Below, piece after piece: positions 28,001 to 34,000 of a stretch of 64,000 bases of DNA. The DNA is from Nemertoderma westbladi. Taxonomy: Eukaryota; Animalia; Xenacoelomorpha. The stretch spans positions 1-64,000 of the forward strand of contig JAUCBJ010001164.1 in the NCBI GenBank assembly GCA_032718475.1, read 5' to 3'. A model generated the notes under the pieces. That model was not told the origin of the DNA. It ran no database searches and was given only the letters and a program-made list of their open reading frames with translations. The position numbers and the translations under genes are program-made. Within the stretch, counting starts at the first letter, position 1; each line of letters opens with the position of its first letter.

Positions 28001-31000
28001 ATGATGTAACATTCATTTATACCAATAATTTTTCTCAAATTATATTTAAATGTAATCAACTAGGGAAGTAACAACCCAATGATTTGCGCTCGGGGGCTGT
28101 GTAGAGATTATTCAGCTGTATGCTGCATAGGTTATTCAGCTGTAAGCTTCAGACCTATGTACATGTTGTTCGGCTGTAAGCCCCGGTGGTGTACATGTTG
28201 TTCAGCTGTAAGCCCCGGTGCTGTACATGTGGTTTAGCTGTAAGTCCCGATGCTGTACTTGTACATGTTATTCAGCTGTAAGCCTCAGATCTGTACATAT
28301 GTTGTTCAGCTGTTAGCCCCGGTGCTGTACATGTTGTTCTGCTGTAAGCCCCAGTGCTGTACATGTTATTAAGCTGTAAGCCTCGGTGCTGTTCATGTTA
28401 TTCAGCTGTAAGCCTCGGTGCTGTACACGTTGTTCAACTGTTAGCCCCGGTGCTGTACAGTTGTTCAGCTGTATACCCCCGGTGCTGTACAGGTTGTTCA
28501 GCTGTTAGCCCCGGTGCTGTACAGGTTGTTCAGCTGTAAGCCTCAGATCTGTACATGTTGTTCAGCTGTAAGCCTCGGTGCTGTACAGTACAGGTTGTTC
28601 AACTGTTAGCCCCGGTGCTGTACAGGTTGTTCAGCTGTAAGCCTCAGATCTATACATGTTGTTCAGCTGTTAACACCGGTGCTGTACAGGTTTTACAGGT
28701 TGTTCAGCTGTATAAGCTTAATAAGCTTAATGATGATTATTTACATACTGTACATTATATATATAAACATATGCCAATTACATATCACACATAATATGTT
28801 ATATACAAAGTTAATATTATATATTTTATCGTTTGTATTTGTAGGCAATCGATATCAAAGAAGAGGTTGATGTCACTGAGGATTTTGATTGGTGGAGTAA
28901 GTTCTATGCTTCCATGGGGGATGTTGACAAAGCTGGCGATTATATTGATAAAGGATACGATACCATAAAGGTTGGTTCAACAGCTGTAATAGCGATATAT
29001 ACAGTATATGGGAAGCCAAGAACTTAGCCATATATATTCTAGATATACAACCACTAACTTTATATATTCTAGATATACAACCACTAACTTTATATATTCT
29101 AGATATACAACCACTAACTTTATATATTCTAGATATACAACCACTAACTTTATATATTCTAGATATACAACCACTAACTTTATATATTATAGATATACAA
29201 CCATGAACTTGAACGTGTGGACGGATTTGAGGAATTTAACGATTTTCTCTCTACCTTTGATTTGACTCGCGGTAAGACAGATGATGACGAAGAGCCTGAA
29301 GTTATGGGTCAGTTTAAGGTTAGTTGGTTGGTTCCGGTTGGGTTAACCGAAGTAATGGGTCAGTTTAAGGTTAGTTGGTTGGTTCCGGTTGGTTTAACCG
29401 AAGTAATGGGTCAGTTTAAGGTTAGTTGGTTGGTTCCGGTTGGTTTAACCGAAGTAATTGGTGAGTTAAAGGTTAGTTGGTTGGTTCCGGTTGGTTTAAC
29501 CGAAGTAATGGGTCAGTTTAAGGTTAGTTGGTTGGTTCCGGTTGGGTTAACCGAAGTAATTGGTCAGTTTAAGGTTAGTTGGTTGGTTCCGGTTGGTTTA
29601 ACCGAAGTAATTGGTCAGTTTAAGGTTAGTTGGTTGGTTCCGGTTGGTTTAACCGAAGTAATTGGTCAGTTTAAGGTTAGTTGGTTGGTTCCGGTTGGTT
29701 TAACCGAAGTAATGGGTCAGTTTAAGGTTAGTTGGTTGGTTCCGGTTGGTTTAACCGAAGTAATGGGTCAGTTTAAGGTTAGTTCGTTGGTTCCGGTTGG
29801 TTTAACCGAAGTAATTGGTCAGTTTAAGGTTAGTTGGTTGGTTCCGGTTGGTTTAACCGAAGTAATGGGTCAGTTTAAGGTTAGTTGGTTGGTTCCGGTT
29901 GGTTTACCCGAAGTAATGGGTCAGTTTAAGGTTAGTTGGTTGGTTCCGGTTGGTTTAACCGAAGTAATGGGTCAGTTTAAGGTTAGTTGGTTGGTTCCGG
30001 TTGGTTTAACCGAAGTAATGGGTCAGTTTAAGGTTAGTTGGTTGGTTCCGGTTGGTTTAACCGAAGTAATGGGTCAGTTTAAGGTTAGTTGGTTGGTTCC
30101 GGTTGGTTTACCCGAAGTAATGGGTCAGTTTAAGGTTAGTTGGTTGGTTCCGGTTGGTTTAACCGAAGTAATGGGTCAGTTTAAGGTTAGTTGGTTGGTT
30201 CCGGTTGGTTTAACCGAAGTAATGGGTCAGTTTAAGGTTAGTTGGTTGGTTCCGGTTGGTTTAACCGAAGTAATGGATCAGTTTAAGGTTAATTGGTTGG
30301 TTCCGGTTGGTTTACCCGAAGTAATGGGTCAGTTTAAGGTTAGTTGGTTGGTTCCGGTTGGTTTACCCGAACTAATGGGTGAGTTTAAGGTTAGTTGGTT
30401 GGTTCCAGCTGGTCCGGGAGGCTTAATTACTGCGCGTTTTAATTGTGGTAAGACTATTTATACTCTGTTTTTACCATATCTATTGAATTAATACCACAGT
30501 TAATTATTTGGAGTTTGGATATTAAACTTTGATATTTTTGTGTTCAGGGTTCATTTAGGGTATATGTTTTACCCCAATCTCGTGATTCCCCGCTGCCCGT
30601 TAAACAATTCATCAACCTACCCACACACGAGTTAGAAGAGTTTAATATCCGCGTCTATATACTGCGTTGCTTAGACCTACAACCCTGCGATGACGGCGGA
30701 GCGGTATGAAGTCATAATGCATGCGTCATCTAGCAGCACTTTGCATGGGTCTAATCTCGTTGTTGTACTGGCTCATGTTTTTTATCTTTAGCATGATTGG
30801 TGTTAAAATTTCGCAATGCATGCGTCGTGCACCATATCTTGCATTTTACGATGTAAATTTGAGTTTTGGACTGCTGTTGACGTTTTGTAATACACGTTTA
30901 CGGGGTCTTTGTTCACCACGTTGTCTGGATGAGCCATTACGTAGCAGTAAAATTAGTGGGCAGGTTACTATTCTGTCTTTGTCTATAATTTCTAAACTTT

Positions 31001-34000
31001 TGTTAGATTACATTGTGTACCAAGTTTAATCCCGTTTCATCAAAGATTGACTGACTTTTTAGCGTTGAAACATTTCCAAAGTTGACTACGACTTCGACGA
31101 CCACAGTCGGTCCACTAATTATACCGATAATTAAAGGCATATCTAGGCTTCGTGGCTCGCCCCACTCATTGACGCCGTGAATAAGCTGCTCCAGCTAACT
31201 CTATACCCTTACGGGATTCTATTCCATCTGTAAGACCATTGAGGTTCAGTCATAGATTAACCATGGACGGGATCCTATGAACTTTGTAACCTATTTGTAT
31301 AACAACATAGTTGTTTTGAGGCTCTGTGTGTGGATGCTAGTCAGTATGGATGTTGTGCTCATCAAAGGACGCCTCATTAGACCCCTGGTGGTCAAGGACT
31401 CTTTGTGTATAAATGCAGGATTAAGTTTTCATGTTAAACTAAACTGAGTCTGATTTCTCGGACGTTTTGGGAAGACTCATTCGATGAATCCTATCTATTA
31501 GAGTCAATGAGCAATTACTGTGACTGGAACCCATCAACCACAGACCAGACCGCAGAAGCTGACGTATTATTAACCTCTTAGCCATCCAGTTATCGAACTT
31601 GTGTTTTTATTAACTCCAGGGCTGTTTCCGTTTATATCCGTTATCCCCTGACGATAAAGAGGCGGAAATGAAACGGATATACAGCGAAGCGAGGCTGAGA
31701 TCAAGTCAGCCCGTTAAAGTTGTGGTTAGGGCCTACATCATTAAAGCAATTGATGTGCAACCATTAGATGATAACGGCAAGGTATGTGTTGTACGGATTG
31801 GCTTCAGATAACATTATATGACTGTTTTGTTTGATATAAACATTTCGCTTATTTCATACTTTGTTAATAACAACCGACTGTTTGATGTTATTCATCAACT
31901 ATAGCTTACGCTTATTTAATGTGGACTTATCAGGGAACTCTGTCGCGGACATGCCTCTCCAGACGTAGATTCAGTTAATGGTATAGTGTTGCATCACAGA
32001 TGTTGGGGGATGTTTCCTCCATGTACAAAGAAGCGGTTCAGTATGGTGACATTAATATTGACAATTAATAGCGTTAATGCCTCACTGCCCAATTGTTTTG
32101 GTGTAGTAAATGTTCGATATTTGTTTATTTATTTGTTGTTATTGGGTTTATGCATGAACCTTTACTCTGTATGTGCTAATAATCTTTCTGGCTGTGTAAC
32201 TAGGTGGTTATGGTTAATCTGATTAAAGCAATCTATCTGACTTTCTTATTATCATTAGAAAATCGAATGAATTTTGATTGCGTCAAAACTTCCCCAATTT
32301 GTTTGTGCCAGATAAATATTCTAACCAACCATTGATTATTGCATTGCATATTGCAACCCTATTGGTTAAAAAATGTAGGCAAACAATTTTTAAACTTGTA
32401 AAGATTGTTTCGAGTTATTTATCAGTTGTTATAACTCGAAAACACCAATTTATAATAAATAGGACACAGGGTCTGTGTCTAATTCAACCGTTTGTTATTA
32501 TCAATGATTGTGTTTATTACTGTTCTACTCTATGTTGATAATAACTAAATTAATTATTATTGGTAAATCTATTTATTGGTGTTATATATCTCGTGTAGGC
32601 TGATCCTTATGTTGTAATCAAACTCGGCAAAGATAAGATAGAAGATCAGGATAATTACAAAGCGAACACATTGAACCCGGTGTTCGGTAAGTTCTTCGAA
32701 CTCACTTCCACCATCCCACTCTACAAAGATCTAAAGATCACGATCGTGGACTACGACCTTATTAGTTCGGACGATGACATTGGGGAGACTGTAATTGATT
32801 TGGAGAACAGGTTTGTTGTTATAGAAACGGGACGCACACACACACAATGTAGTTTGTTGTGGTAAAAAGCTATACTAAATCGGTGTCCGTTTCCATATAA
32901 TATCCAAATGATGGTGCAGCTTCTTTTGAAATTGATTTATGAACTTAATTTCGCGAATTTAATTTCGCTAATCACCATGAGTGTGATTAACATTTAAGGG
33001 AAAGAAGAGCAAGTCACATATGCTTTATTTTCTAACCTAAACAATAACAGTTCATGGACATGGTTCATAACAGGATCACAGTTTATTGTAATATTATGTT
33101 TGTTATGTTCTTTAGTCACCATTTAGAATGTGTCATTTAGGCTTTAGTCTAGGTTCAGCTAGGTAGATATTCAATATCAGCATCTTAATTGACAGGCTAA
33201 AGCCGTATCCCGATCGATAAATGTAAATGTGTCTTCTCCTTCTCTGTTTATCCACTGAATATCTATCCGATATGTTTGATATTTCTTACATGTCGTCGCC
33301 GCCAGAACACCGATTGTCCCCTGTGTTTATTGGAGACAGGGGGTGGGGAGGGGGGCACTTGACACAAATCCGTCAATTTCGTCGCAATGCTAAATTAACA
33401 ATTAAGGAAAGGAGCGGGTCACAGTGGCACGTTATTCTAACCAAAACAATAAACTAATAAAGCTAATTAAACATGTTAGAGTTTTTTTCTGCAATTAATC
33501 AGCTGTTATTTTACGTTTAACTTCCCCTGGAGACAGATGCTTCGAAAGTCCACCCCTATCTGGTTTCGTGTTTCACTGCTTCTATATCTAAAGCTCAAAT
33601 TGTGTATGTATGTATGTATGTTTGTTTGTTCCTCTATCTCCTCCTAAACTACTGGCTCTCAGCGATTCAGCGTGGTCCTGGGCTCTGTATAAAGTAATTT
33701 TCACCGCAATGCAGTGAATATTTTCGGTACTTTTAGTAGTTTTTCGGTATTTATTGCAATTCGTTTGGTGTCTTTGCTTCTGAGCGACTAACACAGTTAA
33801 TATATTTATATTACTATTACTATATTTAATACATTTATTTGATAAAATCAAATATTTTAATAAACTAAATTTGAGAGCATCCACAGTAGTATCTATAGAA
33901 TAATACAGTAGATAATACTGTAGACGAGACGATTGCTAGTCCTAATACATATTGAAGTTTTCGGACATTTCATTTCCCACGCATCTGGGCCTTCTCGGTA

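Follow-up and report, generated by a model that had tools for sequence, protein, structure and literature searches.

A pair of adjacent homologous exons, probably spliced one at a time, at the C2E–C2F hinge of a type I ferlin gene in Nemertoderma westbladi

In human genes, 629 clusters of tandem-duplicated mutually exclusive exons (MXEs) have been validated by RNA-seq (PMC5740500); here and below, what is said of a cited paper refers to the passages of it that were covered. Within the ferlin family, exons 47 and 48 of otoferlin encode alternative transmembrane domains (PMC10394277), and human myoferlin and dysferlin have a single version of the segment that leads from the C2E domain into C2F. 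In contrast, a ferlin gene of the xenacoelomorph Nemertoderma westbladi contains two versions of this segment. The gene lies in the window analysed here, that is, the whole stretch of 64,000 nucleotides (nt) at positions 1 to 64,000 of the forward strand of contig JAUCBJ010001164.1 (GenBank assembly GCA_032718475.1). To judge from the sequence, it is quite probable that the two exons, A and B, are intact copies of old origin which are spliced one at a time, giving two isoforms that would differ in the hinge and in lipid contact. The pair and the shared exons on either side are listed below, with protein parts as predicted.

29193..29318, + strand: shared upstream exon, whose end lies in the first half of C2E's last strand
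30548..30703, + strand: exon A, 156 nt, phase 0/0; it covers the second half of C2E's last strand, a linker with prolines, and then C2F strand 1 and loop 1 with Gly
31620..31781, + strand: exon B, 162 nt, phase 0/0; the same segment, with a proline-poor, likely helical linker and loop 1 with Asn
32599..32810, + strand: shared downstream exon, with the remaining C2F core and the other Ca2+ ligands

Exons A and B are adjacent homologous exons which encode the same protein segment, with equal phase, similar length, and intact frames and splice sites. Exon A is bounded by TTCAG/GGT and GCG/GTATGA, exon B by TCCAG/GGC and AAG/GTATGT, and neither contains a stop on translation. A preliminary description of this DNA had named two intact phase 0/0 exons of 156 and 162 nt for one segment, and the peptides it quoted are confirmed by translation. 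The intron between A and B is 916 nt long, and the flanking exons (29193-29318 and 32599-32810) join in phase 0. With either A or B, splicing gives a frame that is open from 28845 down to the stop at 53815, while with both or neither it is open through the next exon, which is the extent that was built. The two peptides share 16 identical residues (31% identity; BLASTP E 5e-8), which is above chance, and each separately matches residues 1573-1623 of the myoferlin chain 9h6x_D (E 5.9e-8 for A and 1.8e-3 for B). A profile of 38 orthologues, from which the rows of this window were excluded, matches the window at only two places, which are A and B (53.9 and 42.9 bits).

As in the human MXE clusters (PMC5740500), the members of the pair are adjacent and homologous, of near-equal length and equal phase, and cover one structural segment; the difference is that A and B are known from DNA alone. 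In 10 supplement files of that catalogue there are four DYSF rows (file 3), none of which is this exon, and no row for MYOF, OTOF or FER1L4-6. Otoferlin exons 47 and 48 (PMC10394277) are likewise duplicated ferlin exons, but they belong to a different domain and a different ferlin type.

By its sequence, the host gene is a type I (DysF-bearing) ferlin of the dysferlin/myoferlin kind. The mapped exons, which include C2 and transmembrane exons, mostly match a snail myoferlin-like protein (about 40–90%). Exons 916-984 and 3021-3164 match residues 989-1085 of the type I protein P0108 (83% and 50% identity), a region that we take to be DysF from its motifs; Pfam returned no family for the one putative DysF exon that was scanned. 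In a quick tree, the gene falls inside the 40-row type I set, with a support of 99 for the split from two otoferlin-like rows, and it joins no sampled lineage within that set (best identity 62%).

The corresponding segment in the C2E–C2F structures for the human proteins myoferlin and dysferlin (PDB 9h6x, 9qls and 9b8k; PMC12264198, PMC11544258) has the same type I architecture, and the equivalent of D1569 is found in both A and B. The Ca2+ ligands named for myoferlin are D1569, D1575, D1624, R1630 and E1632, and its C2F starts at residue 1551 (PMC12264198). The loop-1 ligands D1569 and D1575 fix an offset of 51 residues, so that the exon corresponds to about residues 1522-1573 of human myoferlin. 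In the AlphaFold model of the homologue P0064 (44-row alignment; predicted local distance difference test, pLDDT, of 81), the last strand of C2E (431-443) crosses the exon start, so the segment, as modelled, is half of that strand, the C2E–C2F linker, and strand 1 and loop 1 of C2F. The earlier assignment to C2F strand 1 and loop 1 stands, but it had overlooked that the segment begins already in C2E and holds half of the last strand and the whole linker. Identity between A and B is 6/9 in the first part, 1/22 in the linker and 9/21 in the last part.

The aspartate of loop 1 (the D1569 equivalent) is present in both copies, and the equivalents of D1575, D1624, R1630 and E1632 map to the shared exon 32599-32810. 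Loss of a Ca2+ ligand in A or B was rejected, since both keep this aspartate. The suggestion that the exchange tunes Ca2+ and lipid binding is thus weaker in its Ca2+ part than had been claimed. The contrast between an acidic A and a basic B is real but modest (net charge −2 vs +2, with orthologues from −4 to +2), and the charged stretches before strand 1 would lie at the end of C2F that is remote from the Ca2+ loops.

Identity between A and B at codon positions 1, 2 and 3 is 20/52, 31/52 and 13/52, with second positions conserved and third positions saturated, and 4 of the 16 identical residues have the same codon in both copies. The introns flanking A and those flanking B are no more alike than shuffled sequences (44 and 114 of 200 shuffles score equally well). 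The codon-position pattern together with the unlike flanking introns points to a duplication that is old and constrained at the protein level, and both copies look to be under purifying selection. In simulated neutral decay with 16 settings, 2–367 of 5000 runs retain the splice dinucleotides and an open frame, and the number is 2–33 of 5000 where substitutions per site are 0.8 or higher. For column counts, we chose 38 orthologues from the stored proteins: of the columns invariant among them, A keeps 8/8 and B keeps 7/8, and of the well-conserved columns A has lost 6/21 and B 7/21.

Splice sites were scored with matrices built from 19 acceptors and 18 donors of the gene itself. The acceptors of A and B score 6.9 and 7.6, above all 79 nearby intron AGs (maximum 6.7), and the donor of B is good (8.1). 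Three simple locks were tried and rejected: a frame lock, because A+B stays in frame; a U12 lock, because the donors GTATGA and GTATGT do not resemble the U12 donor consensus; and a steric lock or distant branch point, as the 916-nt intron holds 45 AGs and the AG-free zone before B is 30 nt. It had already been stated that neither frame nor spacer imposes exclusivity, and this is borne out by the in-frame A+B and the normal intron. Many human MXE clusters are likewise without a simple lock (PMC5740500). One candidate element of control was found at exon A, as a lead only:

30516..30651, + strand: predicted 15-bp stem, in which 30516-30530 pairs with 30637-30651 inside exon A

The 5' arm lies at −32 to −18 from exon A, in the likely branch region, and 2 of the 15 pairs are G-U. 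Shuffling the region yields a perfect 12-mer this local in 8 of 500 cases (91 of 500 at any distance), and the pairing at A is the strongest among 22 exons of the gene. Pairing as good is reached in 3/2000 codon-order shuffles and 1/2000 upstream shuffles, and the folding z is −3.2 for a window that was chosen afterwards. A duplex scan, in this single genome, gave one G+C-rich patch in the intron (31134-31163), which might pair with several places, the donor of A among them.

The isoforms would differ mainly in the linker and at the Gly/Asn of loop 1, and hinge shape and lipid contact are predicted to differ with them. The linker contains 2 prolines in B and 4 in A (4–9 in orthologues), and the helix cost of the B linker, 0.59, is the lowest of all (orthologue minimum 0.86); a single-sequence model makes the B linker a helix at modest confidence. 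C2F belongs to the domains by which the ferlin ring is closed onto the membrane in a manner dependent on Ca2+ and phosphatidylserine (PS) (PMC12264198, PMC12526402), and in myoferlin it moves about 20 Å on membrane binding (PMC12264198), so a stiffer hinge could matter. The loop-1 residue before the invariant Gly is Gly in A and Asn in B. It has Gly in 4 of 412 matches among stored proteins, but in 24 of 72 animal loci from metagenomes, there as single-copy exons. From the PKC motif, we take this position to be that of Asn189 in PKC-alpha. In that protein, the loop asparagine bonds the seryl group of PS (PMC6550875, PMC3707892).

Use of one exon at a time is supported indirectly, by the signs of selection on both copies and mainly because the halves that would be redundant under co-inclusion are kept in both: the C-terminal part of A keeps 7/9 conserved columns and the N-terminal part of B 6/8. 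That the gene has a second duplicated exon pair, described below, also speaks for the reading given here. We propose that an old tandem duplication likely produced A and B, and that each mRNA would carry one or the other. The helical, proline-poor linker of B, compared with the more usual coil of A, would change the freedom of C2F to swing onto the membrane, while Gly in A would lower, and Asn in B keep, the contact with the PS head group. The choice would be made by trans factors, with A weakened by its feeble donor and by the stem over its branch region, so that B would be the default.

Several results weigh against alternative use of two functional exons. The distance of A and B from the orthologues (z −3.0 and −4.0) exceeds that of any of the 38 single-copy exons to one another, while the divergence of 8 further exons in the gene is average (z −1.0 to 0.0); the faster divergence of the pair fits specialisation, but also relaxed selection. 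The donor of A is weak (4.8), with only 2 of 18 constitutive donors lower and one intron GT reaching 7.0. The stem was found post hoc and without covariation support, pairing as good arises in 46 of 2000 synonymous recodings, and although the stem would dampen A, it would not itself bar A+B. The single-sequence helix model has a mean pLDDT of 66 and wrongly makes strand 1 helical too. Ser or Thr is common at the position of the loop-1 Asn, and this Asn is not named as a lipid contact of myoferlin in the passages covered (PMC12264198).

The distribution of the pair also counts here. Among 72 metagenome contigs of animal origin, none showed a second copy of the segment: the best second hit had 12.1 bits, vs 42.9–53.9 for the exons of this window. 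Of these loci, 27 are genomic with both flanking exons and 11 are spliced or intron-free here. The scan pattern was made from typical exons, and would miss A and B themselves but show a second copy beside a typical exon. Two versions in one gene occur in no species among 227 proteins with the segment (235 were scanned, of which 8 are short fragments without it). The sample includes 15 of 41 cluster members for Ptychodera, 8/8 for Patiria, 6/6 for Nematostella, 10 full-length Lineus isoforms, and 15 members each of the oyster, octopus, coral and abalone clusters; none of the relatives sampled is close, the 62% given above being the best identity to the gene. Searches for homologues that started from one exon each were weak and yielded 6 and 2 candidates, of which none scored, and scans of genome contigs and viral contigs gave 0 loci and none. 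No account of the A/B pair was found in the literature as judged by titles and the starts of abstracts, a scope outside which lie most subscription journals and bioRxiv supplements. The pair has so far been seen in one genome.

Two other candidates for a pair were set aside. P0109 (3083 aa) has two hits 1389 residues apart and looks like a fused model of two genes. Loop ends like those of A or B occur in P0001, P0014, P0018, P0030, P0043 and others, which were rejected as a conserved pair because each of the 72 loci held one copy; the Gly and Asn types are therefore single-copy exons there, likely of separate genes. Among loci L007-L068, exon types with Gly or Asn before the invariant Gly recur as single copies on separate contigs. 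They are likely paralogous genes with the same contrast as that between A and B.

It is unlikely that one copy, A more probably than B, was formerly functional and is now rarely or never spliced, leaving essentially one isoform. This would suit the acceleration of both copies, the loss of 6/21 and 7/21 well-conserved columns, and the weak donor and predicted paired acceptor region of A; a recent loss is also compatible with the decay simulation (at 0.3 substitutions per site and with no indels, 367/5000 runs survive). On the other side, the frames are intact and the acceptors strong in both copies, which keep 8/8 and 7/8 of the invariant residues.

That A and B are joined always or often, with A completing C2E, B completing C2F and a linker about 52 residues longer, is distinctly improbable, given the conservation of the parts that would then be idle (strand 1 and loop 1 of A, 7/9; the first part of B, 6/8), even though A+B is in frame without a stop, the 916-nt intron, with normal splice sites, sets no steric block, and both domains could still fold according to the P0064 model.

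An import or conversion of B from an otoferlin-type ferlin gene (without DysF), which would provide an optional otoferlin-like C2F loop, is very improbable. The last 30 residues of B do score 18.1 bits on otoferlin vs 13.3–13.7 on dysferlin and myoferlin, and type I rows differ from B in having a type I minus otoferlin-like score of at least −0.1. The strand-loop part of B has a mean score of 78.8 to 5 otoferlin-like proteins vs 64.1 to 38 type I proteins, but these 5 were fetched with a profile containing B and are a biased set, in one of which the lack of DysF and FerA was checked. Moreover, B shares the boundaries of A and keeps the type I QP motif, its best match at full length is myoferlin, and ESM Atlas gives A and B the same first cluster. 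In a tree of 57 exon peptides, an A+B clade is not rejected (p value of the approximately unbiased test 0.79), and with 0 starred branches the tree resolves nothing. Finally, an artefact of assembly, allelic haplotypes or a fragment from an interleaved second ferlin gene can hardly be the explanation, although the region is rich in tandem repeats, as the copies have unrelated flanks and an identity of only 31%, and a scan of the window with 8 full-length ferlins found only A/B and a transmembrane pair duplicated outside tandem arrays and no other parts of a second gene.

This second pair and the last exon of the gene are located as follows.

50236..50383, + strand: transmembrane exon copy 1, 148 nt
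53072..53219, + strand: transmembrane exon copy 2, 148 nt
53783..53815, + strand: shared last coding exon with the stop codon

The transmembrane copies are identical at 35 of 49 residues (71%), and at 38, 44 and 19 of 49 sites for the three codon positions. Together they would shift the frame, and both splice to the last exon 53783-53815. They are closely paralleled by otoferlin exons 47 and 48, with the difference that each otoferlin exon is terminal while both copies here join one shared last exon (PMC10394277). The annotated Lineus myoferlin-like isoforms (P0148, P0304-P0313) have 7 different last exons and the octopus isoforms (P0157, P0290-P0303) at least 2, so that an alternative C-terminal tail is a recurring feature among type I ferlins of invertebrates.

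Tandem repeats mark several exon borders of the gene, including that of the shared upstream exon:

29298..30413, + strand: 51-nt minisatellite of 21.9 copies, repeating the upstream exon end and its donor (21 copies of the donor 9-mer)

The 51-nt unit equals 17 codons and is open in the coding frame, within a stop-free stretch of 432 residues, so splicing from a donor copy farther downstream would insert in-frame units of 17 residues into the last strand of C2E. Between 3480 and 40599 of the window, 9 of 18 long-period tandem arrays have one end on a mapped splice site (7 on donors and 2 on acceptors), with about 1.7 expected. A possible 54-nt cassette exon at 14952-15005 (AG...GT, open, 18 codons) lies in the C2E insertion, and its donor starts a 238-copy array at 14965-24821. 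The alternative exon 40a of dysferlin also lies in the C2E insertion. At 25093-25165, an open Lys/Glu-rich stretch followed by GT may be another small exon of this insertion. The intron at 5600-10800 contains dispersed repeats, with similar open stretches at about 6100, 7800 and 9500, which are likely fragments of old mobile elements.

In summary, A and B are a real, old and probably functional exon pair at a structurally meaningful hinge. A further suggestion, which we put forward tentatively and consider doubtful, is that this one gene has two exon switches, at the hinge with loop 1 and at the transmembrane segment, whose isoforms would fill the roles of separate ferlin genes elsewhere: with B, the hinge would be stiff and helical and the loop otoferlin-like and PS-gripping, while A would bring a Gly loop of the kind that occurs elsewhere in single-copy ferlin genes (24 of 72 loci), and would be gated by a stem of its own coding sequence. 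As a splicing arrangement the pair is of an ordinary, common kind, and its value is that of a ready-made comparison of structure and function for a disease-linked family. If the reading is true, hinge and loop-1 alternatives tested by selection in an otherwise identical protein would allow a direct enquiry into what hinge stiffness and the loop Asn/Gly do to determine membrane engagement.

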